DNA of 64,000 nt from Eledone cirrhosa. Lineage: Eukaryota. The stretch is taken from positions 4,464,001 to 4,528,000 of the forward strand of contig OZ024759.1 of assembly GCA_964016885.1 (NCBI GenBank), read 5' to 3'. Each line of letters begins with the position of its first letter. Position 1 is the stretch's first letter. The notes beneath the pieces are model-generated. The model was given only the letters and a program-made list of their open reading frames with translations. It was not told the origin of the DNA and did not search any database. Shown piece by piece: positions 1 through 60,720 of the stretch. The position numbers and the translations under genes were made by a program.

Positions 1-382
1 AATGTAAATGTTATGTGAGATATTATGTGAGGTAAAGCCTTTACTGTGAAAATACAATAGTATATATAGAGTAATGTAAATGCTAAAGAGTTAAAACATA
101 ACTTAACAAATGTTCTTACATAAAGTTAGGATAGAAGGTTTTAAGATAGTTATAAACATTTTATCATAAACTAAGATGCGTGGCTCTGTGTTTAGAGTAT
201 TCGCCTCACAATCGTAAGGTCATGAGTTTGTTTACCAGCGGAGTGTTGTGTCCTTGAGCAAGACACTTTATTTCATATTGTTCCAGTTCACTCAGCTGGC
301 AAAAATGAGTTGTACCTGTAATTCAAAGGGTCAGCCTTGTCACACTCTGTGACATGCTGAATCTCCCCGAGAGCTATGTTAA

Positions 383-603
383 CCCTTTAGCATTTAAACT
401 GGCCATATCCGGCCAGAATTCTCTCACCTCTTTCTGTTCAAACCAGCCATAACTGGCTGCTCATACTTATGTGAAGGTATTGTTCTCAAAATATATAATA
501 TCAAAATCTCATAGATTTGATATTATGTGAGATAATTATGTAAGATAAAGCCTTTACCACAAAAATGTAATATTAGATATGGAGTAATGTAAATGCTAAA
601 GGG
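383..603. mobile_element. piggyBac-like MITE, ~220 bp (other copies or pieces at 1-95, 3460-3893, 20090-20560 x2, 50610-50806, 53295-53499, 56700-56925, 61775-61994)
   Basis: TTAA|CCCTTTAGCATTTA...TAAATGCTAAAGGG|TTAA termini; this copy sits in the TTAA site of a SINE. Confidence 0.8.
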
Positions 604-834
604 CTAAGGGTATGCATGTCTGTGGAATACTAAGCCACTTGCACGTTAATTTCATGAGCAGGCTGTTCCAGTAATAGTGTCAACTGGAACACTCATTGTT
701 GTAACCGACAGTGCCAGTTCAAGTTCAAGGGGTAGAGTTGATTCAGACAGTTTGGTATCCAAACAGTTAAACAATTAGGAACATGTGTGTTTCATGCCAT
801 TTATAAATAAATGTCTTTAGGTGACATTCTAGAA

Positions 835-1715
835 CAGAAGTTCTCAAACTTTTTGGGGCCATCGCCCCCCACAGGGCCTTGTAATACCCTCTAAAACGCC
901 ACACCTATTTCCAGAGAGACCTACCTACAAGCAAATTGTAAATAATATAAAAAAAAGGAACGATGGACTTTCGTCAAATCGGACCGAGGAAACAATGTTT
1001 CCGTTGGTCTTTCCAATTGCTAATACTATCTATCGGTCGCAACTCCAGGTAGAAGGAGCAACGTGAAATAAAGTAAATAATATATAATACATAAAATGGT
1101 TGATATATAATAAATAATTCTTTCTACTTTTGGCACAAGGCCAGCAATTACTCCAGTATATTACTGGTACTGTATTTTATCGACCAAGTAAAGGTGAAAG
1201 CAAAATTAACCTAGGAGGGATTTAAAGTCAGATCATAAGGGGCCGTAACTCTATGCTGCAAAGCATGGTGTCCTACCTTCTATAATATATCGACAGTCGA
1301 TCAACTTCCATCAAATTGGACCACGGAATCAATGCTTCCATTGGTCTTTCCAATTGCTTGGCAGTTCTTTACCCAGCTGTCATCCACCATGCGCATCACA
1401 TGTCCATACCAACACAGTCTTCTCTCCCACACACTACAACTTATCCCTCTTATACACAGTTTCTCTCTCAACTCGTCTATACTTTGTCGTTCACATACAT
1501 TGACATCACACATGCAACAGCATATACTTGCTTCATTTCTATCCACTATATAATATATACTATGTATCAATAAATATCATATACTTTTTTATTTTACTAT
1601 ATTTATATATAAAATTTATCATTTGATATTTGATATACTATTATATCCTCTCCACCCCCATCCTTAAGCCCCAGCACCCCTCTTGGGGCAGTAGCACCCA
1701 CTTTGAGAACCTCTG
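835..1715. mobile_element. Non-autonomous hAT (Charlie-type) element carrying nested SINE and LINE pieces
   Basis: TIRs CAGAAGTTCTCAAA / TTTGAGAACCTCTG; 8-bp TSD ttctagaa / ttctagag. Confidence 0.75.
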
Positions 1716-1794
1716 TTCTAGAGGGAAGTGAAATTGTAAAGTGTAACAGGCAAGAAGACAACATTTTTCCAAACAAACAAAAAAACCAACTTAC

Positions 1795-2052
1795 TATCAA
1801 TATAGTTATAATATATCCTTAGTTGGGAAATATCGTATGTTTGTCTGAGTTCAAGAGTCCACAATGATCTTGGAGAGCTCATTGTATGAGAACAAGATCT
1901 GTGTTGTGGGTTTTGATCGAAGTTACCATCTTCAGCCAGGTTAGCTGACATTGAGTACATTTCATTGCGACAAACATTGTTTTTCATTAGAATTACACTG
2001 CTTGTTTTGTCTGTCGTGGTTTGTGTAGCTACTTTACCAATAGCTATATTTC
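1795..2052 (-). CDS. Host gene exon, N-terminal half of an F-type lectin (fucolectin/F5-8 type C-like) domain
   Basis: Acceptor ttttcag, donor gtaagt; 258 bp, phase 1-1; NIAIGKVATQ...ANLAEDGN...CSHT...LWTLEL..YDISQLRIY matches the F-type lectin pattern NxAxGKxAxQ..AVDGN..CxHT..WWxVDL. Confidence 0.85.
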
Positions 2053-2221
2053 CTGAAAAAGAATGAAAGAAAATTTAATGAAAGTCAATTACTATGAAAT
2101 GAAATGGATCTCAGTCAGTTGAAACGATGATTGATCCAGTGGGAAAAGACAAATTGTTTTCTATATACTAAACTTTTGAAATATCTTTTACGTTATCTCT
2201 AAATTATTCCATATTTCCAGT

Positions 2222-2500
2222 AGAGGCATGTGGCCTAGTGTTAAGTGTGTTGGACTTACCATCATAATGTCATGGGTTCGATTTCTGGGGTGGGTTGTGT
2301 GTTGTGTTCTTGAGCAAAACACTTCATTTCACGTTGCTCCAGTATACTCTGCTGAAAATGAGCACCAACAATAGCTGTGGAGGGTGTAACCCTGCAATGG
2401 ACTGATGTCCTGTCCAGGAGGAAGTCTTGTACTCACAGTCGCTTTATGCCATGAAACCAGGATAAGCATTGGCCTAATGAGCCTTCAGGCTTGAGACAGT
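2222..2500 (+). mobile_element. tRNA-headed SINE family B (also ~177-715, 15105-15300, 32220-32530, 46050-46530, 54335-54935, 55040-55270, 60900-61550)
   Basis: A box tggc.tagtggtt, B box ggttcga, core gttgtgtccttgagcaagacactttatttcac. Confidence 0.8.
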
Positions 2501-2680
2501 ATAGTCCTATACGAACGAGACACGGTCACCCGACCAATCTTGCCTCAATTGGGACAACTCCCGACTAACCCATGCTAGCATGGAAGATAGATGTAAACGA
2601 TGATGATGATGATGATATAGCAACCTCAGCCTCAACAGTGACAGCAACAACAACGGCATGATAATTAGAAATCTACTTAC

Positions 2681-2824
2681 TATAGGTTTTTACTTGGCAA
2701 TCCGGTCCGGTCCATCCTTCTTCACAGCCATATGGGCAAGCCCCAGTTTGTTGATGGCAGTCAGCATCGTTTAAACAATGGCATTGCTTGTTACAAGTAT
2801 ATCCATACCATTGAGATGCACAAC
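2681..2824 (-). CDS. Host gene exon, EGF-like repeat (GCASQWYGYTCNKQCHCLNDADCHQQTGACPYGCEEGWTGPDCQVKTY)
   Basis: Acceptor ttttaacatag, donor gtaagt; 144 bp, phase 1-1, 8 Cys. Confidence 0.92.
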
Positions 2825-2889
2825 CTATGTTAAAAGTTAGAATTTATCACACTGATGGACTACATTTCCACAGTTCTCTCTCATCTACA

Positions 2890-3793
2890 GTTAATTGTTT
2901 CTACTATTTGGCACAAGGTACCAGTAATACACAGGGGTAATTGCTGAATTACCTCAGTGCATTACTGGTGCTTTATTTTATTGACCCGCCCCCCCCCCCC
3001 ATAAGAATGAAAGGCAAACCTTGGCGGGTTTGAAAGCAAAACGTAAAGGGCCATAACTCTATGCTGCAAAGCATGGTGTCTGACACTCTACGGATTACTG
3101 CCAATCCAATAATAATAATTGTTTCTACTTTTGGCACAAGGCCAGTCAGCAATTACCTCCAGTGCATTACTGGTACTTTATTTTATCGACCTCCGTAAGA
3201 ATGAAAGGCAAAGCTAACTTCAGCAGGATTTGAACTCAGAACGTAAAGGGCCATAATTCTATGCTGCAAAACATGGTGTCTGATGCTCTACGGATTACTG
3301 CCAGTCCAATCCAGCAATTACCCCAGTGCATTACTGGTACTTTATTTTATCGACCCCTGTAAGGATGAAAGGCAAAGTTAACCTCGGCGGGATTTGAACT
3401 CAGAACATAAAGGGCCGTAAACATGATGTCTGACACTCTACCGATTACTGCCAGTCTTACATAATTATCTCACCTAATATTATGGTCTGAGTTCAAATCC
3501 CGTCGAGGATAACTTTGCCATTCATCCTTACGGGGGTCGATAAAATAAAGTACCAGTAATACACTGGGGTAATTGCTGGCCTTGTGCCCCCAAAAGTAGA
3601 AACATAATATTGAATATATTAGATTTTGATATTATCTATTTTGAGAACATTATCTTAACATTAATAAGGGCGGTGGGTTGGCAGTATCGGTGGAGGGTCG
3701 GACGCCATGCTTTCCAGCATAGAGTTACGGCCCTTTACGATCTGAGTAATGCACTGGGTAATTGCTGGCCTTGTGCCTAAAGTAGAAACAATT
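2890..3793. mobile_element. Cluster of SINE family A (also ~1113-1280, 33240-33410, 33895-34082, 49347-49530, 54605-54760, 56098-56365, 56515-56700, 61020-61212)
   Basis: Shared gagttcaaatcccgccgaggttaactttgcctttcatccttacggggtcgataaaataaagtaccag body with a B-box-like gttcaaat. Confidence 0.8.
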
Positions 3794-3950
3794 ATCTTAA
3801 CATGAATATGAACGGCTGGTTACAGCCAGTTTGAACAGAAAGAGGTGAGAGAATTCTGGCCAGATACAGTCGCTTTAAATGCTAAAGGGTTAACAGTCAC
3901 AGTTTGTAGAGATTAACAACTAAAGTTTGAATGAATAAAGATCAACAGAC

Positions 3951-4100
3951 CTGATAATGATAATGTTTCGATACAGGTACCCTCTCCTTTTATAGAAATA
4001 GACCAAGCGTTTACATCCCCTGAACAGCTCAAAGGTCTGGTTGTACATATTGATGTACAAAAGGGTTCCTTATTTTTGCCAAAAAATACTGAAACTGTCT
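3951..4100 (-). CDS. Probable host gene exon (ETVSVFFGKNKEPFCTSICTTRPLSCSGDVNAWSISIKGEGTCIETLSLS), domain unassigned
   Basis: Acceptor ttctcatttcag, donor cag|gtctgt; 150 bp, phase 1-1, open and in phase with the next EGF exon; non-repetitive island. Confidence 0.55.
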
Positions 4101-4115
4101 CTGAAATGAGAAGTG

Positions 4116-4149
<34 letters not shown>

Positions 4150-4173
<24 letters not shown>

Positions 4174-6443
4174 ACGGAGGAAATGTGGTAAGGAACCAGG
4201 TGGACCATAATGCACCAAAGTACTCAATACTTAGGGTAGTAGAGTGGGTAATAGGAACGAGTAGGACCCCGACGGCTGAGCTCAAGCCGTTTCGACGGCT
4301 AATTCTGGACTAAATGAACATTTTTATCCTGGTATTTGAATAGCCGAGCTTCTAAAGGGGTAATTCCATATATGGTAAAAGTGATTGTCACGAGGATTGG
4401 TCAAAAGTTTGTTGTTGAGACATAATAATTCTATGATGGCAATTTGTGGAGGGAAGGGGTAGCTGAACCTGCCAGTAGGAGAAAGAGGGAGAGGAGGTGG
4501 AGGAGACCCAGTCATGCGTTGATAGTGCCGACTACAGCTGGGCATGAGGTCAAAGAGGATACTAGGGAGGGGGAGGGGGAGGAAGTCGAAACAATTAGTA
4601 AAACAATTAGTAAAACAATATGGGGTAAATATATAGAAAAATACCGAGAGTGTTAAAAAGCAATTAAATGTAAAAAAAAAAAAAATAAACAATTTCTGGT
4701 TACTACGACCTAAGTCTCTCACTGGCACTGCTAGGCTAAAGAAAGGTTTACTAGGTGGGACGGAATTATAATGAGACCCTTTTAAGAGGTATAAGTAATA
4801 AACCAAGTATATCTTACGGTGACGGGTCAACAAGTGAGGGGTCAAAATACTAAAGAAACTACCACGAAATAATAAATAAAGGTTTCTACCCCAGGCACAA
4901 GGCCAGCAACCACCCAGTGCAAAAAGTAAACTAATACGAAATAATAATTCAGAGTCCTGAAAAAGAATACTAATACTATCTCTAAGGGTGCCGCCACGAT
5001 ACAAAAGTTCTAGTGCAAACTACATAAAAGCTCGTACGAAGTAAAATTTGATACGGAAAATTAGTTCAGAATCCCCCCCCCCCCCCAAAAAAAAAAAATA
5101 CTGATATATGAGAAATTAAAGCAAAGATACCACTAAGAAATATAGAAAGCACGGAAAAGGGGCAGCGGTCGGATAAGGAGGCAAGTATCCGGGGTCTAAC
5201 ACATCTGCTATAAAAAGCGGAGTCGGCCAAATCTATCATAGAATAGGGGTAGGGGGTGGGGGTAGTGAAACTACAAAGGACCGAGGGGCTGCCTCGGGTG
5301 GGCGAGAAAATGAAAAGGACGACAACAAAGAAAGAGGACTGGGGTGGAAGGACTAGGGAGGGATGGGGGGAAGAAGGAAATATAGAGGAAGCGATAAAAA
5401 GATATAAAAGATCTTACGTCTACCGTACCTTTGCAAGCAGGGGTTACCCATTACAAAATCGGCAAGTGGGGTGTTATAGCCCTAGTCTCCCCTCCCCGGG
5501 TCATTATGGGGTTTGAGGGCGAGGTAAGTCCTACGCAATCTATGTTTACATGCAGTAACCAGTCCATCTTTCATTTGTAAAGTTTCCTCCGAGCATAAAT
5601 TGCACGGACGGCGTCCTCCCGTGTAAGAGTTGGCTCTGGACAGTAAGCTCCAAGTGAGATCATAGGTAATGTTGTTATCCTTGAGGTCCCATATGTGGCC
5701 CGAAAGTGTAGTGGCGTGACGCCGGGCCGGGTTTCGGAAGGTATTCCTGTGTTGGTATAGCCGGGTCTTGCGGTTAATCCTATATAAGCTTTGTTGGAGG
5801 TGTCCGTCCTCACGTTGCACTGGTAGATCACATTACGATCTCTGCATCTGTTGTCGAGGGGGAAAATGGATCCATCAGGACAGTTGCACCTCCTGGTCAG
5901 CTCTCCACTGCTATTTAGGTTATTTTTTCCATAGGGGTTGAGTTTTTTGTTGTTAGAGGAGACGATATTTTGTGCAAAGTTTGGTGTGGTGCTGTAAGAG
6001 AGTTTAATGGTATTTTTGTTAATTACGTTGTGGTAGCGGTGTTGTAGTGGGAAGTGTTTTTCAATGAGCCTAAAGAAGATTTTCCCGATAGGAGTTGTCA
6101 CCTCGGCGTTGTGGGGAGGATTGAACTGGTTACTGCATGTAAACACAGATTGCGTAGGACTTACCTCGCCCTAAAACCCCATAATGACCCGTGGGGTAGA
6201 CTAGGGCTATAACACCCCACTTGCCGATTTTGTAATGGGTAACCCCTGCTTGCAAAGGTAGACGTAAGATCTTTTATATCTTTTTATCGCTTCCTCTATA
6301 TTTCCTTCTTCTCCCCATCCCTCCCTAGTCCTTCCACCCCAGTCCTCTTTCTTTGTCGTCGTCCTTTTCATTTTCTCGCCCACCCGAGGCAGCCCCTCGG
6401 TCCTTTGTAGCTTCAGTAGCCCCACCCCCTTCCCCTATTCTAT
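4150..6443 (-). mobile_element. 5'-truncated Penelope-like element: frameshifted C-terminal GIY-YIG ORF, long 3' UTR, inverted terminal segment
   Basis: FNPP...KHFP...KLSYS..PN..CNC..NVIYQC..YIGLT..LSGHIWDLK..CNLC..CKHR; 5238-5563 is inverted at 6126-6443; (TA)n flanks. Confidence 0.85.
4266..4361 (-). ncRNA. Type I hammerhead ribozyme motif, U3-A8 family, core mutated (UUUAGAA), probably inactive
   Basis: acccc-TTTAGAA-long stem II-GAAA-cggct(tgagctc)agccg-TC-ggggt; lies in the Penelope 3' UTR. Confidence 0.6.
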
Positions 6444-6608
6444 ATATATATATATATATGTGTGGAAAAAATGAAACAAAATTTCATTTCTCACTCTTAG
6501 TGCGGCTGTTACTTAAATATAAAGTATGTATACATACATACATATATGTATACAGACGTACAGTAGTATATATACATGCACACATATATATATGTACGTA
6601 TGGCACTC

Positions 6609-9600
6609 AATGACAATGTCACAGATTAAGACAAATTCACCTCCTGCTGCAAGACGAGAATACAAGGACCCCTCTTTATTTCAGACACAGATGACCAACA
6701 AAATCCCGTCTCCCACACCCCTCCCTGCCCCTCCAACCCATCCATCCCACCCTCCCAACTTAGAGTTGGTACCATGAACGTAGGCACATTGAAAGGTCGC
6801 TCAAATGAGGTTGTAGAGATGCTTGAACGTAAAGAAATTGATGTTTGTTGTATTCAAGAGACTAGGTGGAGAGGGGGATCTGCCAGATTCATCGTGGGTA
6901 AAAAACGATGCTATAAACTTTTCTGGGTGGGAAATGACAACGGACAGGGTAGTGTAGGAATTATGTTAGCTGAAAAATGGGTAGATAAGGTAATTGACGT
7001 AAATATAGTGAATGACAGAATAATTAAATTAAGACTAGTTCTAAATAGAATTACTGTGACAATAATATCTGCTTATGCACCCCAATCTGGTCTCCCTGAT
7101 GTTATAAAGGACAGGTTCTATGAGATGCTAATGCACACTACCTCCCAAATAACCGACAGCGACTACTTAATTATTGCTAGCGATCTAAACAGTCGCGTTG
7201 GACAACATAGTGATGGCTATGATGGAATTCATGGAGGCTATGGGGTTGGAAATAGAAATGAGAAGGGTTTCAGAATCCTGGAATTCTGTGATGCAAATAG
7301 CCTAACTATATGTAACACAAACTTCAAAAAACGTGAAAACCACTTGATCACCTATAGATCAGGGGAACACGCCAGCCAGATAGATTATATCCTTACTAGA
7401 AGACGGGACAAAATGTCTGTTGTAAACTCTAAATCCCTCCCCCGTGAAGAATGCCCCTCCCAACATCGCCTAGTAGTTAGTGACCTCATAGCCAGGAATA
7501 GACGTACTCGACGACAGAGGAGGCCTACCTTGAGGAGAAGAATATGGAAGTTGAAGGACCCCATAGCCAGTGACAAATTTAAAAGCTTATTATTTGTTGC
7601 CTTTGACAATAAGGAAGAGCAATTAGAGACGTGCAATAGAGAGGAACAGTGGCAATCCTTGAAAGTGAACCTGCTGAAAGCAACGGATGAAATCTGTGGC
7701 TGGAGCAGACCTATTGGCAGGAGGAGAGTAACTTGGTGGTGGAACAGTGAGGTGGAAGAGACAATCAAGGGCAAAAAGCAGGCTTGGAAAGAATGGCAGG
7801 ATGGGGGGCGTAGAGAGCACTATCAAGTGGCCAGGAGAGAAGCTAGGAGACAAGTGTACCTTGCAAAAAGGGTAGCAGAGGATAGAAAGTTCAAGCATGT
7901 TCTGCAACGTGAGGACCAAAAACGTGAGGTGTTCAGGATTGCTAGACAATGTGTCAAGGAAAACCGTGATATTGTCGGGGAGAAGTGTGTCCGTAATGAT
8001 AATGGTGTACTTGCGCTCACTGATACTGATAAGCCTGGAAGAGGCACTACGAGAGACTATTAAATGAGAAGAATAAATGGGAAAAAGATAGTCTGCCCCA
8101 AATCGATCCAATGGTGCAAGGTAAAGGTAGTATAATAAGTAAGGCAATCAAAGATATGAAGACAGGCAAGGCAGCTGGGCCTTTGGAGGTAGTTGCTGAG
8201 ATGCCTTCAACATCTGGTATGGCGGGACACACTATGGTCACACGTATAGTTAACCAAGTAATACAGAATGGAGTCATACCGAAAGACTGGCGTAGCAGCA
8301 TCATCATTAACTGCTACAAGGGTAAAGGGGATGCTCTAGATAGGGGAAACTATAGAGGCATTAAGTTAGTTGACCAGGTCATGAAGGTCACAGAAAGAGT
8401 AATAGCGCAACTAATCAGAGAGCGAATTGATCTAGATGAAATGCAGTTTGGGTTTGTGTCAGGTAAAAGTACCACAGACGCTCTTTTCCTTGTACAACTA
8501 CAAGAGAAGTACCTAGCTAAAAGTAAACCCCTCTACTTAGCTTTTGTAGACCTGGAGAAAACTTTTGACAGAGTCCCCCGCTCCATTATCTGGTGGGCTC
8601 TTAGAAAACTAGATGTAGATGAATGGCTGGTGAGAGCTATACAAGCTATGTATAATGAAACAGTCAGTAAGGTTAGAATTAACAATGAATATTGTGAAGA
8701 ATTTAGTGTAAAAGTTGGCGTTCATCAAGGCTCTGTCCTTAGCCCCCTCTTATTTATTATTGCCCTTCAGGCTATAACAGAGGAGTTCAAGACCCGCTGC
8801 CCATGAGAACTCCTATACGCAGATGATCTAACGCTCATAGTTGAATCAATGGCTGAACTAGAGAAGAAATTCGAAACATGGAAGCATGGCCTAGAATCAA
8901 AAGGCCTTAAAGTTAACTTGTCTAAGACTAAAGTTCTAGTTTGTAGAAAGGAAAATAGGGCACAGGTGCCCTCAAGGAAATGGCTATGCTCAGTGTGTAG
9001 GAAAGGAGTAGGCAGAAATTCCATTTTATGTCCCAAATGCAAAGTATGGGTACATAAAAGATGTAGTGGGATCACAGGTAAACTATCTCAGAACGTAGAC
9101 TTTATATGTGGCCAATGCTCAGGTGCAATAAGTAGCAAGTGTCCAAAGGATACTAGCTCCTTCCATTGCCCAGATGGTTCTATAGAAATAGTAGACACTT
9201 TCCGTTACCTGGGTGACGAAATCAACGTGGTGGAGGGTGTTCTGAAAGTACAGTAGCCAGAGTCAGAACGGGATGGAAAAAGTTCAGAGAGCTTATACCG
9301 TTGTTGGCCACAAAAGGTTTCTCTCTAAAAATGAAAGGCAGATTGTATGATGCCTGTTTCTCTCTAAAAATGAAAGGCAGATTGGTATGGCCATGTGATG
9401 CGCATTAAAGACGACAGTTGTATAAAAAAAGTGCAGGGCGATCAAAATTGATGGTAGTTACGGAGTAGGTAAACCCAGAAAAACCTGGGATGATCTGATA
9501 AATTCCGACCTTACATACTTACATCTCTCTAAGACAATGTCTCTGGACCGAGATCTTTGGTGCTATGCAGTAATACAGAAGACCCGCCTTGCCTATGTAC

Positions 9601-9963
9601 AAAACGAAACCTACAGTCAGTAGGCACCTCTTAACCAAATATACACCCCAATCTACTACCCCTACCCTATCCTCCCACTCCCACCAACAGCATGAGAAAA
9701 TGAAATCGAGTTCGTGTAGGTGTCACGGGAAAGAAAAAAAAAACACACAGTCCACGCTGTAATGTGGTCGTGTAGGTAACATGGTAAAAAGTTCCCAGTT
9801 CCACACTGTAAATGTGGTTGGTGTTAGGAAGGGCATCCAGCCGTAGAAAACCTGCCAGATAGTTCTATATGAGTGAGACACGGTCACCCGACCAGCCTTG
9901 CCTCAACTCCCGTCTAACCCATGCTAGCGTGGAAAATGGACGTTAAACGAAGATGATGATGAT
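6609..9963 (+). mobile_element. RTE-clade LINE (AP endonuclease, RT, PHD-like finger), near full length, disrupted
   Basis: NVGTL..IQETRW..SAYAPQ..SQIDYIL..SQHRLV; GVHQGSVLSP, YADD; frameshifts and a stop; (GAT)n tail. Confidence 0.95.
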
Positions 9964-9967
9964 ATAT

Positions 9968-10430
9968 ATAGGAAAATGTATGACCTCGACAGTAGAGCTC
10001 AAGCCGTTTCGACGGCTATTTCTGGACTAAATTAGAATTTTTAGCCTGGTAAATAAATAGCCGAACTTTTCAAGGGGTACTTCCTTATATGGGAAGATTG
10101 TAGCTGTCAAGAGGATTGGTCAAAAATTCCTGGTAAACACAATTAAGTCTATCATGGCAGTGGGTGGGAGGTGGGGATGGCTGAACTTGCCTGTAGAGCA
10201 AAGAGGGAGTGGGTGGAGCCGGTCAAGCGTTGAAAGTGAAATCTAAACAGCAAATTCTAAGGATTGTGTAAGAAAGTAGGCCAACTTTCATACTTTCCAC
10301 CATAGCGATTAAACTGCATACCCTGCTTTCCAGGTTACCCTTTGCCACTGATATATATATATTTATATATTGAGTACTCTGGTGCATTATGGTCCTTCTG
10401 GTTCCTTACCACACCTCCTTTGTTATATAT
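9968..10430 (-). mobile_element. Second Penelope-family 3' UTR fragment with an inverted terminal piece
   Basis: 9980-10230 resembles 4262-4530; 10366-10428 is the reverse complement of 4150-4230. Confidence 0.65.
9983..10078 (-). ncRNA. Type I hammerhead ribozyme motif, core UUGAAAA (U3-A8), extended stem II
   Basis: acccc-TTGAAAA-G..cggctattt/aaatagccg..C-GAAA-cgg..ctg-TC-gaggt; GUC cleavage triplet at 9990-9988. Confidence 0.65.
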
Positions 10431-10496
10431 ATACAACGGCGGCGAAGATTGGAAACCGAATCTGAGCTTTCCCACCTCTGGGACAAGCCATGGTAA

Positions 10497-13400
10497 GTTG
10501 TTTACGCTCAAGAGACTAACCCCCTGGGGGATGCTAAACACAGGTCAGAGGTGTTTAAGCCTGACAGAAAATAGGTCAGAGGATATATCCATCTTTCTGA
10601 GTTGTTTACGCTTGGCAAACTAATCCCTTGGGAGACTCTAACCAAAGTTCAGAGGATATATCTATCCTTCTAACTTCAACTCTTATAAATACAGGGGTTG
10701 TTTACGCCCCGACAGAAAAGAAGTGATATACAGACAAGACAAGTGGCCTTTACAAGCTCTCGTCACGAAATACCAGTCCGTCACTAATTTCCTCTCCTGC
10801 CTGGCTGATCGATACAACCACATATTCCGTTACAACTGGTGACCCCGTAAAACAGACACACAACTTCTGATCATCCACTACAAACGATGTCTCTAGCACA
10901 CGACGATTCATCTACGGCAGAAATGGCAGTGAGGGGGGCATTTACATTAAGAATTCCACCATTCTGGGTGCACGATCTAACACTGTGGTTCGCGCACATC
11001 CAAGCGCAGTTCGCATAATAACACACGACCCACCTGTCGCTGCACGACCTAGAAGGCTACCACCAGACCGGCTGAAGTCCGTCAAACAAGAATTTCAGCA
11101 CATGCTGGATCTCGGCATCATACGTCTGTCCTCACCCATACACTGTGTACCCAAGAAGTCGTCGAACGACTGGCGAATCTGTGGCGACTACCGTGCACTA
11201 AACAACTGCACCGTTCCTAACTCTTATCCAGTACCTCATCTACAGGACTTCTCTAGCTCGCTGCACGGGGCTCGCATATTTTCGAAGATCGATCTTGTCG
11301 AGCTTAACAATCAGATACCCGTTGAGCCCGCAGATATTCCAAAGACCGCAGTCACAACACCCTTTGGAATGTTCGAATTTCTGCGTATGCCTTTCGGTTT
11401 GCGAAATGCAGCGCAAACATTCCAGCGATTCATCGATACAGTCACCAGGGGTCTACCTTTTGTATACGCATACATTGACGACTTACTGGTGGCCAGCAGC
11501 TCCGACGAAGGACATGAGAAACACCTGGATCTCCTATTCACACGTTTGCGTGAATATGGAATTGTTATCAACCCCAGCAAATGTGAGTTCGGAGTTGCGT
11601 CCCTTCATTTTCTGGGACACATCATTGACAAAGATGGTATTTGCCCACTTAAGGAGAAAGTCAAATCCATCATTGATTTTCCACAACCTATATCTCTCCG
11701 CAAACTGCGAGAATTTCTTGGCCTGGTAAACTTCTACAGAAGATTTATACCCCACTGTGCAGAGACAGCCCAACCACTCACAGATTTGCTGCGGCAGCGT
11801 ACAACCAAAAACGCAAACATCAAGCTTCGCTGAGTTGAAGAAAATGTTGTCCGAGGCTACAATGCTGAGTTACCCCAAACCTGACGCCCCAATGTGTTTA
11901 TTGACTGATGCATCCGATTTCGGAGTTGGAGGTGTGCTTCAACAACTCTCTGGCGATATTTGGCGACCTGTATCTTTTTTCTCTAAGCGATTAAAACCCG
12001 CCGAAACTAAGTACAGCACATTCAGTCGTGAATTATTGGCAGCATACCTTGCTGTCAAGCATTTTCGACACATGCTAGAAGGTCGTGTGTTCTCTATATA
12101 CACCGACCACAAACCACTAGTGTACGCGTTCAATGCCAAGCCTGACCGACACTCACCCAGGGAGGTCCGACATCTGGACTTCATTTCTCAGTACACTACT
12201 GATATTCGGTACATTAAGGGTGCCACCAACTCAGCAGCTGATGCCCTATCGCGCATGGAGCTTAAGGCAATCCACACCACTGCCACTATCGACCTCCAGA
12301 AGATTGCAGCGGATCAACAGAATGACGAGGAACTGCTGCAACTCCGGAAATCATCCTTGAAATTGAAGGAATGCCTGCTGCCCTCTTCTTCGGGTTATAT
12401 TTGGTGTGACATCTCCACAGGCCGCGAGCGCCCATACGTGCCCCGGAAACATCGACGCGACGTTTTCTCGACACAGCATTCTCTGGCACATCCTGGCGTC
12501 TGCGCCACGCAGAAACTGATGGTTGCCCGCTTTGTGTGGCCCAACATCAACAAGGACACCCGCGAATGGGCTAGGAACTGCATCGCGTGCCAGAAGGCGA
12601 AAATTCACCGGCACATCAAAGCCCCGATCGCTTCTTTCGCAACACCTGATGCACGGTTCCAACATGTGCATATAGACATAGTTGGACCTTTGCCTCCTTC
12701 TCAAAACTACACTCATCTTCTCACCTGTGTCGACCGATTTTCTCGCTGGCCAGAAGCTTTTCCCCTGATGGATATTACTGCGGAAACTGTTGCCAAAACG
12801 TTAGTGTTTCACTGGGTTTCGCGTTTCGGCACACCCGTGACCATCACTACGGATAGAGGACGTCAGTTCGATTCGAACCTATTTACCGAGCTGCCTCGTC
12901 TCCTCGGGTGCAAACACATCCATACAACAGCGTATCACCCTGCCGCTAACGGCATGGTAGAACGCTTACACCGCCAGCTAAAATCATCTATCAAGGCTTA
13001 CGAAGACTCCACTAACTAGTTCGAATACCTCCCACTCATTCTTCTTGGTATTTGTTCCACTGTTAAAGAGGGAGTCGGACATTCTCCGGCTGAAATCGTG
13101 TATGGCACCGTACTCACTCTACCCGGACAAATGATCACTCCTGTTTCGCCACAAGAACTTCCAGACCCTACAAAATATGTGCACCGTTTACGGTCATCAA
13201 TGTCGCATCTGTCTCCTTCAGCCCCTAAACAACAGCACGTTACTTCACACATACCAAAAGACATCGATACATGTTTTCGTTAGAAATGACGATATTCCAT
13301 CGCAACTTCGTCCACCGTATTCCGTCCGGGCCCTACAAGGTGATACAGAAATGCCCTAAGTATTTCGTCCTCGACTTGAACGGGAAGCGAAATACCGTCT

Positions 13401-14606
13401 CCATTGATCGTTTAAAAAAAGCGTTCATAGAACAGGAATTGCCACCAGTACCCACCGTTTCTCCAGACTCACCAACAACTTTGCCCGACACAAACACGGC
13501 AAATATTGCACACCAAATCCGGAAGAACAGTCCGATGGCCCACGCCATGGGATACGTACAAGTTTATCGGGTAAGTACAAATTATGCATCTGGTCGACAT
13601 TTCGGCTAATTTGTACATTTCAACGAATCGGCCAATTTCTGTGGTCATGAACTACACACAAATCAATTAACTCTGTGCATCACCCACATCAAAAGAACAG
13701 ACAAAAGAACATTTTTCTGTTTCTATGAAATGAACAAACTTTTAATCAACAAACTTTTCGTACGAACATTTTCAATATTATGTAACATCACAGTACATTT
13801 TCCTGAATGTAAATTTCTTTTGCTTTGCATGTTTTCTTCCATGTCTCCTGTTTGTAAATGACTTTCATGTGTTTTTTTATTTTTACTGATTTTCTTCAAC
13901 AACACACCTAGTCATACCTATCTTCATTTCACATGCACCTAGATCGTTCAATCTTAACTTGTTTACGCTCAAGAGACTAACCCCTTGGGAGAGGCTAAAC
14001 GCAGGTCAGAGGTGTTTACGCCTGACAGAAAATAGGTCAGAGGATATATCCATCTTTATGACTTGTTTACGCTTGGCAAACTAATCCTTGGGAGACTAAC
14101 CAAAGTTTAGACGATATATCTATCCTTCTAAATTCTACTCTTATAAAGACAGGGATTGTTTACGCCAAAAACAGAAAACAAGTGGGATACAGACAAGACA
14201 AGACGTTTTACAAGCTCTCGTCACGAAAAACCAGTCTATCACTTATTCTCACCTTCCTGGCTGATCGCTGACTCCTGCAATACAAATAAGTAAATATACT
14301 GATACGCCGCACACACGCATTCATAGTGAGTCCAGCATTTGTACACGTATCATTCATTTCTGTTTACACGTATTATAATCTTATTCTGTGATATTTGAAT
14401 TTACGTGGCTCGAAGAGCCACCAAATTATTGTATGAATATTTTGTGTCAATTATTTTATCATTCAATATTCAAATTGAATATTGTTGTAATAAAATAAAC
14501 TTTGTAACAACACTCCTGGTATTTTTCTTTACACCGAAACCACCATACCAACAGTTACATCCATCCATCCACTTGTCGTTACAACCACACATAATATTCC
14601 GTTACA
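10497..14606 (+). mobile_element. Gypsy LTR retrotransposon (CsRn1/Kabuki-like), gag-protease deleted, pol frameshifted
   Basis: LTR homology 10497-10834 vs 13958-14606, both ending ttccgttaCA; PBS tggtgaccccg 10837-10847; gag start IPPFW..WF; RT YIDD, RNase H TDAS, HHCC finger and DDE integrase; true 5' boundary not resolved. Confidence 0.92.
10837..10847 (+). promoter_or_regulatory. Primer-binding site complementary to the tRNA-Trp 3' end
   Basis: TGGTGACCCCG, 2 nt after the LTR terminal CA. Confidence 0.75.
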
Positions 14607-14745
14607 CCTCCGTCTATATTTCAACCACTGGAACAACCTCACACAAGAAACAGTTGTCGCACCCTCAGTCAACATTTTAATGTCAAACATCGAAATAAAT
14701 GTTATGAGTGTATATAGATAGATGTATATTGTGTGTGTATATATA

Positions 14746-14900
14746 CAGTAATCCCCCGCTATATTGCGGTTCACTTTTCGCAGTCCCGTTACATCGCGGA
14801 TATTTCTTTGGAACGTATCTAATTTCCTATCGCGGTAATCCTCGCCACATCGCGGATTATTCGTTAGAACATATCTATTTTCTTATCGCGGTACGTCTGA
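14746..14900 (+). mobile_element. Tigger/pogo-like DNA transposon end
   Basis: TA|CAGTAATCCCCCGCTATATTGCGGTTCAC.. with repeated atcgcgg subterminal motifs; no partner end seen. Confidence 0.55.
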
Positions 14901-15342
14901 GTAAAAAGTGTTTAAAATTTAAACTTATTAAATAAGTTTCGATGTTATTAAAGAGTATATCGTAAGGAAGGGACATCTTAAGGCTTTAATTATGAACAAA
15001 CTTTTATATTTTCATTCCATTATTGTTTTACTGATTGTGTTTTGCTCTAATCTACTACAAACCCTTCATAGATTGGTCTCTCTGTAACATGGTTGTTTCT
15101 GGAACGTATCATGGCTTAGTGGTTAAAGCATTGGGCTTGCAATCTAAAGGTTGTGAGTTCGATTCTCGGACAGGGTGTTGTGTTGTGTCCTTGAGCAAGA
15201 CACTTTATTTCACGTTACTCCAGTTTACTCAGCTGTAGAAATGAGTTGTGATGTCACTGGTGCCAAGCTATATCAGTCATAACCTTTCTCTTGGACATAT
15301 ATATAGTGTATATATACTGTACACAGTGTATATATATCTATA

Positions 15343-16940
15343 TCATCATCACTGTTTTACGTCCCTTCTTCCATGGTAGTATGGGTTAGACAGGTTGTCC
15401 TGTTGTGGGCAGTGCCAGATAGGGTGACCTTGTCTTGCTCAGATGGGAACCGATTTAGGCTTGATTTCCACAGCTGGATGCCCTTCCTAACACCAACCTC
15501 ACAGTGAGTGATGGGTGTTTTTTTGTTGTGACACCTCCACGGCCACTTTACAGTGGGAGGGGGTGGGGCATATTGTCTATGTGCTTCAGCTTGTACCCAG
15601 GGGCTACAACACAACCTCCTCTGCTGCACACAGCATTTGATTCCTCTTATGTTCAGTCTCTCTCTCAATTTGTTAATGCTTTACCGTTCGCGTATATTAC
15701 TATTACACGTCCATCGGAGCATGCAAGCTTCGTTTCTTTCTAATCTACGCAAGTCTTCTACAGACAGTGCCCAGGTCTCACTACCATGTAGCATTGCTGT
15801 TCGTATGCACGTATCATACTGTCTGCCTTTCATTTTGAGGGAAAAGCCTTTTGCAGCTAGCAGTGGCAGTAGCTCCCTAAACTTCTTCAATCCTGTTACT
15901 GTACTTTCAGAACACCCACCTCCGCTGCTCCTTTCGCCACCTAGGTAGCAAAAGCTGTCTACTGTTTCTACAGATCTCTCCCAGAGTTTGGTGGTGCTTG
16001 TTTCTTTAGTTCTGCCATAGATTCAGCTATAAGTGTAAGATCATCCGCATATAGGAGTTCCTATGGGCATCAGGTCTTAAACTCCTCTGTTATAGCCTGC
16101 AATACTATTATAAACAGAAGAAGGTTAAGAACAGAGCCCTGGTGGACACCGACCTGTATGCTAGATTCCTCGCTATAGTAATTGTTAACTCTAACTTTGC
16201 TGACTGCTCCCCTATACATGGCTTGTACAGCTTTCACAAGCCACTAATCTACTCTTAGTTTTCTAAGAGCCCACCAGATTATAGCACGGAGCACTCTGTT
16301 GAAGAATTTTTCCATATCGACAAGAGCCAGGTAGAGCGGCTTGCTTTTAGCTAGGTACTTTACCTGTAACTGCCTCACAAGGATCAGTGGTGCTTTTTCC
16401 TGGCACAAGCCCAAACTGCATCTCACCTAGTTTTACCCAGTCCCTGATCAACTGTGCTATGACTCTTTCGATTACTTTCATGACCTGGTCCATCAGCTTT
16501 ATATCTCTATAGTTTATTCTATCTAGTGCATCTACTTTACCCTTGTAGCAGTTGACGATGATGCTGCTGCACCAATCCTTTGGTATGACACCCTCTAGTA
16601 TTACCTGGTTAACAATATGTGTGGTTATTACTTTATCTACCCATTTGTCAGCTAATAGTATACCTACACCACCCATCCCATTGTCATTTCCCACCCAGAA
16701 AAATTTATAGCACTAACTTTTGCCTACAAGGACTCTAGCGAACTCTCCTCTCCACCTAGTCTCTTGCACACAGCATACGTCAATATCCTTTCACTCTAGC
16801 ATGTCTATAATTTCTCCTTCCCTTCCTTTCATTGTGCTTATGTTGATGCTGCCAACTCAGAGTTTTGAACATTTGCCATCATTTGTGGGAAAAGGTGAAT
16901 TTTTGCAGGGGAGTGTGTATGCTTCCTGTCTCTGAATTAA
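15343..16940 (-). mobile_element. RTE LINE, internally deleted copy of the same family as 50812-53294
   Basis: EN, RT and C-terminal fragments in ORFs 16347-16694, 16244-16426 and 15681-15890; (GAT)n tail at the left end. Confidence 0.9.
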
Positions 16941-17056
16941 AGCTTTGCATGGGTGCTTGGTAACTCGCAGATTCATATTCATTTATTTATTCGGGGTTGT
17001 TCCATTTATCCTTCGCTCCTCCATACATAACGGTGAACAAGAATTCTTTGGTGCAG

Positions 17057-17497
17057 GGCTAGAAGGACAGTAGTAGTAATGGCAGAGTTTGTTGGGGCTG
17101 GTAAGGGCTAGAAGGACAGTAGTAGTAATGGCAGTGTTTGTTGGGGCTGGTAAGGGCTAGAAGGACAGTAGTAGTAATGACAGAGTTTGTTGGGGCTGGT
17201 AAGGGCTAGAAGGACAGTAGTAGTAATGACAGAGTTTGTTGGGGCTGGTAAGGGCTAGAAGGACAGTAGTAGTAATGGCAGAGTTTGTTGGGGCTGGTAA
17301 CGGCTAGAAGCACAGTAGTAGTAATGACAGAGTTTGTTGGGGGCTGGTAACGGCTAGAAGGACAGTAGTAGTAATGGCAGAGTTTGTTGGGGCTGGTAAC
17401 GGCTAGAAGGACAGTAGTAGTAATGGCAGAGTTTGTTGGGGCTGGTAACGGCTAGAAGGACAGTAGTAGTAATGGCAGAGTTTGTTGGGGCTGGTAA
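17057..17497. repeat. 49-bp minisatellite, 9 copies
   Basis: ggctagaaggacagtagtagtaatggcagagtttgttggggctggtaa(g/c). Confidence 0.95.
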
Positions 17498-18396
17498 TGG
17501 GTAAGGACATGTTGCTGTGGTTTGATTGGTCAAATAGCCAATGGTAGTGAGTGGGAAATTGTGAGATAGGTAGCCATCATGACATATATCATCACAGGAG
17601 ATTCGGGGGAAATAAGCAGATATAAGTAGGCTTATTAGACAAGGCAAGTATGCAAGAATTTCGAAGATTGTCACCTAGCTTTGAGAGAAAGGAGAGGTAA
17701 TTGCAGGGGTTAGGGATGAGTTTGTAGAGAAAGACACAATGTCCAACATAGTTTATATCAAAAACAAGGTCGAAGTATATACATTGTGGAAACAAGTCAA
17801 TGATAATAATAATAATAATGTAAACAGAACATTTTGAAATTGGGGAAGAGAGATAGCTGTAGAATAGAAATAATCTATGAAAGTCTGGGATATAAGTTAT
17901 ATATATATGTTGTGATGTCACTTGTGCCAAGCTGTATCAGCCATTGCCTTTCCCTTGGACAACATATATAGCGTATAATATATATTGTACACATCGTATA
18001 TATACTATATATATTGTGTATATATACTGTAGACAGTGTATATATGATATATATATAGTATATATATATGTAGTGATGTAACTGGTACCAAGCTGTATCA
18101 GCCATTACCTTTCCCTTGGACAACATCGGTGGCGTGGAGAGGGTAGACTGGTATACTTGGGTGACTGCTGGTCTTCCTCAAACAACTGGACTTGTGCCTC
18201 AGAAGGGAACTTTCTAGTTGCAAATCACATGGTCATTCTTGACCGACAGAGGTCTTCGATATGTTAGGTGTGTATATATAGATGTGTATTGATGTCCATG
18301 TGGGAGTCATTGATACCAATGCTAGGGATGGCTGGTCTTCTATATTACTGTATAACACCAAAGATCTCGATCCTGTGTCATTGTCTTAGAGAAGTG

Positions 18397-19987
18397 CAAT
18401 TGTGTGAGGTCAGCTGTTATCACCTCATCCCAGGTCTTCCTACTTCATATCTTCCATCAATTGTGTGAGGTCAGCTTTTATCACCTCATCCCAGGTCTTC
18501 CTACTCCATAGCTTCCATCAATTGTGTCAGGTCAGCTATTATCACCTCATCCTAGGTCTTCCTACTTCATAGCTTCCATCAATTGTGTGAGGTCAGCTTT
18601 TATCACCTCATCCCAGGTCTTCCTACTTCATAGCTTCCATCAATTGTGTCAGGTCAGCTGTTATCAACCCATCCCAGGTCTTCCTTCTCTATAGCTTCCA
18701 TCAATTGTGTCAGGTCAGCTTTTATCACCTCATCCCAGGTCTTCCTACTTCATAGCTTCCATCAATTGTGTCAGGTCAGCTTTTATCACCTCATCCCAGG
18801 TCTTCCTACTTCATAGCTTCCATCAATTGTGTCAGGTCAGCTATTATCACCTCATCCCAGGTCTTCCTACTTCATAGCTTCCATCAATTGTGTCAGGTCA
18901 GCTTTTATCACCTCATCCCAGGTCTTCCTACTTCATAGCTTCCATCAATTGTGTCAGGTCAGCTTTTATCACCTCATCCCAGGTCTTCCTACTTCATAGC
19001 TTCCATCAATTGTGTCAGGTCAGCTTTTATCACCTCATCCCACGTCTTCCTACTTCATAGCTTCCATCAATTGTGTCAGGTCAGCTTTTATCACCTCATC
19101 CCAGGTCTTCCTACTTCATAGCTTCCATCAATTGTGTCAGGTCAGCTATTATCACCTCATCCCAGGTCTTCCTACTTCGTAGCTTCCATCAATTGTGTCA
19201 GGTCAGCTTTTATCACCTCATCCCAGGTCTTCCTACTTCATAGCTTCCATCAATTGTGTAAGGTCAGCTTTTATCACCTCATCCCAGGTCTTCCTACTTC
19301 ATAGCTTCCATCAATTGTGTCAGGTCAGCTTTTATCACCTCATCCCAGGTCTTCCTACTCTATAGCTTCCATCAATTGTGTAAAGTCAGCTTTTATCACC
19401 TCATCCCAGGTCTTCCTACTTCATAGCTTCCATCAATTGTGTGAAGTCAGCTTTTATCACCTCAGACTAGGTCTTCGTACTCTATAGCTTCCATCAATTG
19501 TGTCAGGTCAGCTTTTATCACCTCAAACTAGGTCTTCCTACTCCATAGCTTCCATCAATTGTGTGAGGTCAGCTTTTATCACCTCAAACCAGGTCTTTTT
19601 ACTCCATAGGTTCCATCAATTGTGTAAGGTCAGCTTTTATCACCTCATCCCAAGTCTTCCTACTTCATTGCTTCCATCAATTGTGTCAGGTCAGCTTTTA
19701 TCACCTCATCCCAGGTCTTCCTACTTCATAGCTTCCATCAATTGTGTCAGGTCAGCTATTATCACCTCATCCCAGGTCTTCCTACTTCATAGCTTCCATC
19801 AATTGTGTCAGGTCAGCTATTATCACCTCATCCCAGGTCTTCCTACTTCATAGCTTCCATCAATTGTGTCAGGTCAGCTATTATCACCTCATCCCAGGTC
19901 TTCCTACTTCATAGCTTCCATCAATTGTGTCAGGTCAGCTATTATCACCTCATCCCAGGTCTTCCTACTTCATAGCTTCCATCAATT
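18397..19987. repeat. 61-bp minisatellite, ~26 copies, derived from an RTE 3' end
   Basis: tcaggtcagcttttatcacctcatcccaggtcttcctacttcatagcttccatcaattgtg. Confidence 0.95.
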
Positions 19988-22150
19988 TTATAAAATGCTT
20001 GAAAACAACTTAGAAAAAATGTTACTCAAAATCAAAATTTAATCCCAAAGAGAGGAAATTGGAACATTATCCACTGAAAGTTGCTTAACCCTTTAGTGTC
20101 CAAACCAGCCAAAACTGGCCAGAATTCTCTACCTCTTTCTGTTGAAACTGGCTGTAACTGGTCGCTCAGACTGATGTTAAGGTATTGTTCTCAAAATAAA
20201 TACTTTCAAAATCTGATAGATTCAATATTATGTGAGATAAAGCCTTTACCATGAAAATATAATAGTATATATAAAATAATGTGAATGCTAAAGGGTTAAC
20301 CCTTTAACATTTAAACCGGCAATAACTGGCCAGAGTTCTGTCCTCTTTTTCTTTTTAAACCACTCGTAACTGGCCACTCATACTGATGTTAAAGTATTGT
20401 TCTCAATATAAATAATATCAGATTCGATATTATGTGAGGTAAAGACTTTACCATGGAAATATAATAGTATATATAGAGTAATGTAAATGTTATGTGAGAT
20501 AAAGACATTACCATGGAAATATAATAGTATATATAGAATAATGTAAATGTTAAAGGCTTAAACGCTGAAGAAAGGACTTTTAGGTCCCGAAATATTGGAC
20601 AGATAAAAGAACAACAACAAAAAAACAAAACAAAGATTACCAGGTAACTTTTACTTTTCCTTACCTCATCTTATTGTCCATTTTGCATTGTTTAGCCTTC
20701 TATCTCTTTCAACGTTATATTTTATATAGAATGCTTCAAACAAACTACAACATTTAATTATATATCATCATCATCATCTTCAATTAACGTCCATCTTCCA
20801 CACTAGCATGTGTTAGACGGGTCCCATTTAGAGGCAAGTGTGGGCTGGATGCTTTTTTGCTGTCTTCTACACGTTCAGTGTGGGTGAGATATATATATAT
20901 GTGTATGTATATATCATCACCATTTAGCGTCCATTTTTCCATTCTTGCATGGGTTAGACGGATCATTCACACCAGGAGGCAAGTCTGGCCAGGGTTGGCC
21001 ATGTGTCGCACCTTGCTCAGGTGAGGTCTGTAAATTTGGTGGGGTATTTTACAGCTGGATTCCCTTCCTAACATCAACCATGTTTACAGTGTGGAACTGG
21101 ATGGCTCTGTTATGAGGAGGGACAGGCCAGTTGGCTGCACTGAACTCATCTCACAGTGGAACTATAATTTTGGGGGGCCTGGTACTGGGTGGCACCATTG
21201 AGGAGGGGGTAGCCAGTCAGCTGCTCCAAACTCATCTCACGAGGTTACCACAGTTTTGGGGCCCTGTACTAGGGGCTATAGTGATGGTGTAGCTAGTTTA
21301 TATGAATAAGTAAATCTGACGCAGGTATATTTCTACAGTTTACCAATGTACCGTACTTACTGGCGCCAATGACGACCAATTTTTGAAAAAAAATAATAAT
21401 CAACCTTCGGCCTCCAGGACATATGGTAGATATTTTGGACTTATATTAGGGAAAAAGTAATGTCTTTGATGCTAGGAAATATGGTGAAAATTTAAAATTT
21501 CCACTGTTAAATCTATCCCTGCATTTTAAGTATTCTCTATTATCTCATACTGTTACTTTCTTATAAGTCCTATAAGAATGCAATTTTTGCTAAACTGCCA
21601 TAGAGCAGACCTCTGAAGTGATAGAAGGATATAATTTATAGAGCATGCTGGAATACCACTGCTTACATTGGAGAGAATTTCTCTGGACAGAATGTTGATA
21701 TCTACAGTTTACCAATATAGAAATATAACATTTCCACTGTTAAATCTATCTCTGCTTCTAAAGTATTCTCTATTATCTCATACTGTTTCTTTCTTATTTC
21801 AGAATATCAGATGACATTGGGATAAATTATTATTTTCAATCTTGGATACATCATCTCTATTTATCATCATTTGAAGACTAAAACCTTCTAAACAGAACTT
21901 ATATAACACTGTTTATATAAATCTATAGTTCAATTACTGTGAAATATTTCCTCAAAACTGAGTTTATTTTCTTCACTATAAGATGGTTTTGTATTTTAAC
22001 TAAACTTGGATGAAACAGAAGTTTGTATTATCTTCAGATATTAACTGAAATCACAGTTGAGGGAAATATAGAAGAATATTTTATAAGAAATATAATATAA
22101 AAAATATTACAAGAAAAACATCTGTATATTCTGTTGAAGAAGAAATCATT

Positions 22151-57792: not shown

Positions 57793-57834
57793 CTGGGTAC
57801 ATTAAATATGAAGAATATAGAAGTTAGATGGAAT

Positions 57835-58890: not shown

Positions 58891-58949
58891 AATGTACAAA
58901 AATAACAGTAAACATCAATAACAACAACAGCAACCATCATCAACAACAA

Positions 58950-59147
58950 TAGTGGTGGTGGTGGTGGTGGTGGTAATGGAGGTGGTGGTGGTAGTGGAGG
59001 TGGTGGTGGTAGTGGTGGTGGTGGTCGATGTGGTGGTGGCGGTGGTGGCAGTGGTGGTGGTAGTGGTAGTGGTGGTGGTGGTGGTAGTGGTAGTGGTGGT
59101 GGTAGTGGTGGTAGTGGTGTGGTAGTGGTGGTGGTATTAGTGGTGGT

Positions 59148-59178
<31 letters not shown>

Positions 59179-60662: not shown

Positions 60663-60720
60663 GTGATGATGATGATAATAACAATGATGATATTTATGAT
60701 GATGATAGTACACCACTTAC

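Follow-up and report, generated by a model that had tools for sequence, protein, structure and literature searches.

The 64,000-nucleotide stretch of the Eledone cirrhosa genome analysed here (contig OZ024759.1, positions 4,464,001 to 4,528,000; hereafter the window) carries on its minus strand two copies of a hammerhead ribozyme motif that belongs to an abundant Penelope-like element (PLE) family. We consider it fairly probable that this family bears a long-armed type I hammerhead in the pseudo-long terminal repeat (pLTR) of a Hydra-clade PLE, that the element RNA starts in the loop of stem II of the ribozyme and that a minority of the RNA is cut right after the GUC triplet. Both window copies were present where a first-pass annotation had placed them:

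9983..10078, minus strand: copy A of the hammerhead (subfamily A1), with an intact U3-A8 core but damage in stems III and I; cut predicted at 9988/9987
4266..4361, minus strand: copy B of the hammerhead (subfamily B1a), with intact stems but G5>U at 4354; cut predicted at 4271/4270

The hammerhead family and its host element

An exact 17-mer from the 3' half of the ribozyme occurred 60,041 times in the genome (control, 0), and at least 5,323 copies of the whole ribozyme were found with a spanning pattern that places no constraint on the core, on stems I and III or on the 5' strand of stem II; the reversed control gave none. Another pattern in which the core is fixed (1,168 matches) was excluded from the core frequencies. 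Among the first 100 spanning matches, tallied by eye, 73 had an intact U3-A8 core and none was C3-G8; C3 was present in 20 (19 otherwise intact, all with A8), two were U3·G8 and five were otherwise mutated. U4, G5, A6, A9, G10.1, C11.1, G12-A15.1, U16.1 and C17 were invariant in all 13 subfamily consensuses, among which N7 shows at least three different bases and loop II changes. In an alignment of 38 real copies from across the subfamilies, pairing was observed in 88.6% of the cells, against 28–50% with slid partners, and 7 of the 21 pairs changed on both sides. The covariation score was 0.162 versus 0.113 ± 0.008 after shuffling, a comparison that is not a probability, since the shuffle ignores relatedness. 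The signal was confined to stem II, where pairs were swapped between subfamilies (GC/AU, 19/11; GC/UA, 10/10; UA/AU, 18/8), with one compensated stem I change in the relative named Q. Stems I and III are nearly invariant and contribute little covariation, a point against the overall reading. Since 5,323 genomic matches stand against none in the control and stem II covaries, the motifs are not due to chance. As modelled, the family motif is a type I hammerhead, with the core and three helices, helix I being open. The U3-A8 core, the majority state in the sample, and the ~56-nt stem II postulated for the 3' untranslated region (UTR) or pLTR of a PLE family are thus supported by the consensuses and by the anatomy of the element described below.

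Rfam gave no hammerhead match at E≤5 in positions 1–20000 of the window and no match at E≤1 in six family loci, two canonical-core copies included. The first-pass annotation had expected standard CUGANGA searches to miss this ribozyme, and Rfam did miss it; the U3-A8 pair alone does not account for it, because the two canonical-core relatives were missed too.

Upstream of the dispersed ribozyme copies, an open reading frame (ORF) for a reverse transcriptase (RT) and an endonuclease was found. One locus, L133, consists of an inverted truncated copy, a partial tandem and a 3,118-bp unit with a 719-amino acid ORF, the ATG of which lies 190 nt beyond the predicted cut of the upstream ribozyme. Read against the alignment excerpts of PMC8557442, this single ORF encodes the RT followed, at the C terminus, by the GIY-YIG endonuclease, and its motifs comprise DKT for DKG, RWR (R where RWK has K), a CxCX5C linker, CxxC and CxH. 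The family insertions sit in (TA)n and include an inverted copy with a one-sided tail, as in the Hydra clade. Two traits typical of that clade were lacking, namely a length below 3 kb (3,118 bp here, despite a UTR deletion) and a canonical hammerhead (here U3-A8); both are described as typical, not diagnostic (PMC8557442). Judged from these motifs, with the published Hydra proteins compared by eye, the host is a Hydra-clade PLE with a hammerhead in its pLTR/3' UTR. A Pfam scan of the PLE ORF gave no match. A non-LTR retrozyme, with non-coding tandem units, was rejected as the host, the family encoding its own RT-endonuclease ORF.

Several further features of the element were observed. Stem I is prolonged family-wide, via an internal loop, by 4–5 bp (window 4370–4365 with 4257–4254, minus strand), and the short 3' end of the insertions falls at the foot of the lengthened helix, which may signal where the RT starts. 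The optional tail beyond that end measures 80 nt (window 4251–4172, minus strand), about twice the 30–40 bp described for PLEs (PMC8557442). At locus L036 (G000:C3 near 197.28 Mb) a second, unrelated PLE endonuclease ORF adjoins a family copy, and locus L205 holds a PLE fragment only ~30% identical.

Two pile-ups of 5' ends

The 5' ends of the insertions are concentrated within the ribozyme. In the 99 arms recovered from the first 100 matches to the 3'-half 17-mer, 80 have their start 0–16 nt ahead of the 3' strand of stem II, in 70 cases at 4–11 nt, 2 start at 17–59 nt, and 17 run through the whole ribozyme. The wall at 10–11 nt corresponds to the A of an initiator-like pyrimidine-A-G-T site (4311 in copy B, 10028 in copy A), 41 nt before the cut. 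Back-to-back pairs joined at this stem II site numbered 11,605 genome-wide, and summed contig depth (run X1) dropped across it from 3.0 million to 0.32 million, roughly tenfold, a crude step that is partly confounded by subfamily divergence and comes from contigs of unrecorded kind. A search of sequencing runs listed no RNA run with the sequence, an outcome that is uninformative on expression. In subfamilies O and P, 10 of the 21 rows under 40 nt lie at 8–11, and several others, inspected by eye, are full copies shortened by mismatches; the few Q arms lie at 0–8. A and B, unlike O, P and Q, also carry a TATA-like run in the 5' strand of stem II, ~30 nt upstream of the site. The element RNA likely starts inside the stem II loop of the ribozyme, as these breakpoints suggest. 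Promoters with initiator-like sites have been published for the pLTRs of other PLEs (PMC2377424, PMC3846280), where the passages concerned do not place them inside a ribozyme.

The same pile-up might instead reflect a stop of the RT, at the distal hairpin or at a bound protein, on a ribozyme that is transcribed whole, which we hold to be somewhat unlikely. In A and B the site lies 3–4 nt inside the 3' strand of the distal hairpin, so that an RT stop is possible there; the ends are ragged, over 4–11 nt; and a cap-derived G, looked for at the start site, was not established (G in 4 of 13, explicable by microhomology). These points weigh against an RNA start. An RT stop is opposed by the O and P arms, which end at the same site although in O it is predicted to be unpaired, in a bulge. 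Moreover, the RT passes the stronger stems II and III just before, and the initiator-like sequence and its spacing are kept while the surrounding loop changes.

A second pile-up lies at the predicted cut. Inverted pairs joined near the cut numbered 320 genome-wide (control, 0), and 705 pairs of B type were obtained when the anchors were moved downstream to free the junction. The first 50 of these 705 were scored; in 24 of them, non-templated bases at the junction fix both ends (48 arms). Thirty-five of the 48 unambiguous arms start exactly at the first base after GUC (position 0), five at +1, six at +2 to +6, and one each at −10 and −17, with none at −1 to −9. At least one arm was at 0 in 20 of the 24 insertions, and both arms in 15; the binomial value of 2e-33 overstates the case, the arms of one insertion not being independent. 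Five of the 50 junctions were flush and hence ambiguous. For the A type, 169 pairs were found against 28 in the control, and in 15 scored loci 11 of 18 unambiguous arms lay at 0, one being a deletion artefact. Junctions of O, P and G type (135 pairs, by eye) also included some starts at the cut. Such insertions lie in (TA)n and join two arms, of 19 and 99 nt, back to back; their pairs amount to a few percent of the start-site pairs, a rough ratio obtained with different anchors. Cleavage after 9988 had been expected for copy A, and it is at the matching position that family insertions start.

The simplest reading of the cut-site arms would be run-off of the RT from RNA with a ribozyme-made 5' end, and these starts are likely a genomic footprint of cleavage by the family ribozyme in the germ line. 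It is quite unlikely, in our view, that the U3-A8 ribozyme is instead a non-cutting relic kept as an RNA structure or promoter, the ends at GUC marking a minor site of transcription initiation or the arrest of the RT at the base of stem III. Several observations speak for such a relic and against cleavage. The C-then-G step at the cut also fits a pyrimidine-purine start of RNA polymerase II (Pol II), and a few cut-site arms carry an extra G. Four cut-site copies (L364, L376, L392 and L416) have C3·A8-type tails, a diagnosis resting on few copies, and this mismatch is expected to impair the core; subfamilies with C3·A8 and U3·G8 were amplified. In PAc, a PLE tested in vitro, hammerhead mutants had no effect on insertion and no RNA-seq reads began at the cut (PMC11167929). 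An RT stop before stem III, however, should leave ends at −1, where none of the 48 arms lies (the five flush junctions being ambiguous). In addition, G5, A6, A9, G12-A15.1, U16.1 and C17 are fixed in all 13 consensuses while N7 and loop II vary, and the 3-8 position regained a pair after a C·A state.

The 3-8 pair, competing folds and proposed mechanism

The states of the 3-8 pair were taken from core-free patterns, and copies selected for G8 were not used for frequencies. Q, an old relative with 17.8% mean divergence from the consensus, has C3-G8 in 16 of 22 copies (up to five of them found through a canonical-core pattern) and already possesses the long stem II and the loop III palindrome. 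In P, G8 was present in all eight core-free matches, with U3 in five, C3 in one and two ambiguous. O (10% divergence) is U3-A8 in 96 of the first 100 matches; of 22 copies of G (6.9%), all have U3 and 20 have G8; A (3–5%) is U3-A8; CA and C (~8% and 3%, respectively) are C3·A8; and B1a, B1b and B2 (2.8, 1.4 and 0.8%) are again U3-A8. A tree of the endonuclease rooted on Q placed P/O first, followed by G/A3, A1, A2, CA/C0, B1 and B2, with support of 79–100 in the CA-C-B part and 53–82 in the basal part (the L205 row is unrelated and a few labels are misassigned). The tree of the consensuses misplaced the outgroup (support 23), and the order was taken from the endonuclease tree and the divergence instead. 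On this order, the 3-8 pair likely passed through C-G, U·G, U-A (perhaps twice), C·A and U-A in successive amplifying subfamilies. Read from the same series, wobble or unpaired 3-8 states did not stop amplification. A strict requirement for U3-A8 was thus not supported, the C3·A8 subfamily (19 of the 100 sampled) and the U3·G8 subfamilies having been amplified as well. A young C3-G8 subfamily was considered and rejected, 17 C3-G8 copies among 93 G8 matches looking like scattered mutations.

The hammerhead was the predicted minimum fold in 6 of 10 consensuses (O, G, A1–A3 and B2) and not in B1a, B1b, C and CA. Because the four strands that make up stems II and III nearly repeat one another, a competing hairpin is possible; its predicted occupancy is 1e-5 in O, 0.002–0.03 in A, 0.05 in G, 0.51–0.72 in B1 and C, and 0.21 in B2. 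That the B1 and C consensuses are predicted to favour the hairpin counts against an active ribozyme. A conserved conformational switch was rejected, the hairpin being negligible in O and A and strong only in B1 and C. Every subfamily consensus, that of the old relative Q included, has a 6-nt palindrome in loop III. Pairing of two stem III segments with each other yields a predicted duplex energy of −26 to −31 kcal/mol, whereas each hairpin alone reaches −5 to −7. This conserved palindrome, with its predicted duplex, points to use of the ribozyme as a dimer, and palindromic loops III have been described as a dimer signature of metazoan PLE hammerheads (PMC4209133; review PMC6765202).

We give little credence to the model of the first-pass annotation, a ribozyme competent as a monomer and controlled by a conserved competing hairpin in which G12-A15.1 is hidden. 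Stem III does have 5–6 bp, the monomer fold is the predicted minimum in the six consensuses given above, both folds lie within ~0.4–3 kcal/mol in B1, C and B2, and the hairpin was the predicted minimum in three of five tests of single copies lacking the 5' half. The negligible hairpin in O and A, the shift of the youngest subfamily, B2, back toward the active fold, and a loop III palindrome kept from the oldest family on argue otherwise. Predicted folding permits monomer activity in most subfamilies; as the working mode it is not supported, the duplex of the loop III palindrome being predicted to be far stronger.

The mechanism proposed here builds on what the sequences show, namely the fold and its covariation, the anatomy of the element, the two pile-ups of 5' ends and two fixed 3' ends. 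Pol II would start at the initiator-like A in the stem II loop of the upstream pLTR, so that the 5' end of the transcript would carry only the substrate half of the ribozyme (G12-A15.1, stem III, GUC and the 3' strand of stem I), and the complete ribozyme would be confined to the 3' pLTR and to read-through RNA. Nicked (TA)n would prime the element's RT at two fixed positions, located 19 and ~99 nt beyond the cut; in PAc, the tail has likewise been shown to be flanked by two sites of RT initiation (PMC11167929). Running off the 5' end of the RNA, the RT would give rise to the back-to-back mini-insertions, mostly ending at the start site and less often at the cut. Cutting would likely use the loop III palindrome, between two copies or between the 5' half and the 3' copy, possibly with the help of protein. 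Most insertions with a whole ribozyme would come from uncut (or re-joined) RNA; cutting is therefore likely not required for every insertion, and this dispensability would fit the shifting identity of the 3-8 pair. To obtain full-length copies, the RT would have to copy read-through RNA or a circle, or jump across the 41-nt terminal repeat.

An RNA circle, made by cutting at both ends and ligation and serving as template for full-length and tandem copies (the model of PMC4209133), appears unlikely. Head-to-tail partial tandems through an intact ribozyme occur in L133, L134, L141 and L145, and both types of end needed would be produced; a circle, however, has no 5' end and would explain neither pile-up, and read-through RNA, or a jump between templates across the 41-nt terminal repeat, accounts for the tandems equally well. 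A bolder form of the run-off mechanism, which we put forward tentatively and at slightly less than even chances, is that the ribozyme is split by its own promoter: the capped substrate half at the 5' end would be cut only upon pairing with an enzyme half supplied by the 3' copy or by a different RNA, and the genome would record both RNA ends to the exact base, together with a walk of the 3-8 pair through lineages that still amplified and still left cut-site copies.

Window copies, genomic setting and known systems

In copy A, stem I occupies 10078–10074 and the core 10073–10067 (U3, G5, A8), stem II measures 56 nt, from G10.1 at 10066 to C11.1 at 10011, G12-A15.1 lies at 10010–10007 and GUC at 9990–9988. 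The first-pass description of this copy was correct for the U3-A8 core, the 56-nt stem II and the GUC; stems III and I, by contrast, are disrupted by substitutions at 9993, 9991 and 9986, and the hammerhead fold has a predicted probability of ~1e-8. Copy B (stem I 4361–4357, core 4356–4350, stem II 4349–4294, GUC 4273–4271) has the perfect stems I and III and the G5>U change reported earlier, and fails the core requirement of a type I hammerhead. Both copies are decayed and likely dead as ribozymes. They belong to different subfamilies and separate insertions, copy A sitting in a 314-bp fragment of an older subfamily than the copy-B element, itself 5'-truncated, and were accordingly rejected as the paired pLTRs of one element. 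The other features of the two insertions are as follows:

9969..10282, minus strand: 5'-truncated end of an A1 element with copy A; reaches the short 3' end 19 nt past the predicted cut, then (TA)n
10368..10424, plus strand: inverted arm remnant (tail end) of the copy-A insertion, by sequence against the L133 tail
4307..4313, minus strand: initiator-like site in the stem II loop; probable RNA start at 4311, from the breakpoint wall of the family
4278..4283, minus strand: 6-nt palindrome in loop III (10000–9995 in copy A); dimer interface predicted from duplex energies
4172..4251, minus strand: optional 80-nt tail past the short end, then (TA)n
4362..5484, minus strand: 3' UTR of the copy-B element, ~1.1 kb; continuous alignment to L133, 87% mean column identity
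5485..6125, minus strand: broken ORF, C-terminal part with the linker and the GIY-YIG endonuclease; identity of 95% and 85% to amino acids 493–719 of L133
6123..6443, plus strand: inverted arm of the copy-B insertion (ORF end and UTR start)

The last of these arms halts in the UTR at a (TA)n run, at neither of the usual 3' ends. The window lies within a segmental duplication: the copy-A region recurs every 100–130 kb on C20 at ~3.5–5.3 Mb, and further near-identical copies of it are found on C27, C16, C23, C19 and C22, with 98–100% identity over the 281 bp tested. Between the two PLE insertions lies a long interspersed nuclear element (AP endonuclease, RT and C-terminal PHD finger; 6630–9256, plus strand), to which pieces at ~15600–16900 and ~51400–53000 are related. 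The pol remnant of an LTR retrotransposon (RT, RNase H and integrase) lies at 10871–13019 (plus strand), just upstream of copy A, and Helitron Rep/PIF1 helicase ORFs at 37168–40278 (minus strand). At ~57800–60900 there is a long tandem repeat of 9–15-bp units with open frames of up to 849 amino acids. A tRNA-like stretch above the Rfam threshold (15112–15169, plus strand) is probably the head of a short interspersed nuclear element.

The function of PLE hammerheads has been called unclear (PMC8557442), and in the one in vitro study of a PLE, that of PAc, cleavage was dispensable (PMC11167929). The insertions that begin at the scissile bond suggest that cleavage by a U3-A8 PLE ribozyme took place in the germ line, and the far larger stem II class suggests where the RNA starts and that most templates were uncut. 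The two pile-ups predict exact sites, one for a peak in cap analysis of gene expression and one for a cyclic-phosphate peak, and the subfamily series provides a natural panel of 3-8 variants in one backbone. If the ribozyme were indeed split by its promoter, the family would preserve a fossil trace of germ-line cleavage by a PLE hammerhead. Neither the class of element nor its 3' hammerhead is new, nor is the U3-A8 swap (PMC3088659; in PLEs, PMC4209133). Searches of open-access literature, the figure supplements of PMC4209133 and PMC3088659 aside, gave no precedent for a long stem II that probably houses the RNA start, for insertions that begin exactly at the cut or for the stepwise changes at 3-8.

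Hydra-clade PLEs and their hammerheads, including Hydra-1_Obim, were described by Craig et al. (2021, PMC8557442). The present family shares with them the ORF with RT followed by GIY-YIG, the DKT motif, the CxCX5C linker, CxxC/CxH, the (TA)n target, a 3' type I hammerhead and inverted truncated copies with a one-sided tail. It differs in its UTR of ~1.1 kb and its tail of 80 nt, and the ribozyme sequence of Hydra-1_Obim is different. The Hydra hammerheads in File S2 of that work are all C3-G8, with a stem II region of at most ~30 nt and a loop III of 1–3 nt, whereas the present family has U3-A8, a stem II of 54–56 nt and 19 nt in stem III plus its loop. U3-A8 in the pLTR is shared with the Cercyon PLEs of Schistosoma mansoni (Cervera and De la Pena 2014, PMC4209133), for which ~1,300 hits were reported, as are G10.1-C11.1, a palindromic 15.2-16.2/loop 3 and the proposed use of dimers. 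The Cercyon hammerheads are, however, minimal and without helix III in that account, while in the present ones stem III is complete, stem II is long and genomic copies have ends at the cut. Natural covariation from C3-G8 to U3-A8 was reported by Perreault et al. (2011, PMC3088659), where such swaps are stated to be active in vitro; within a single lineage, section 8 of that article describes no intermediates of U3·G8 or C3·A8 type that were amplified. PAc/Poseidon of Anolis (Frangieh et al. 2024, PMC11167929) shares the two RT start sites bounding the tail and an AT-rich target, and its main template is uncut RNA, like the templates proposed here. The PAc ribozyme cuts only with protein and overlaps the start codon, and no reads were reported at its cut; in the present family, unlike PAc, 190 nt separate the cut from the downstream ATG, and there are insertions that begin at the cut itself.

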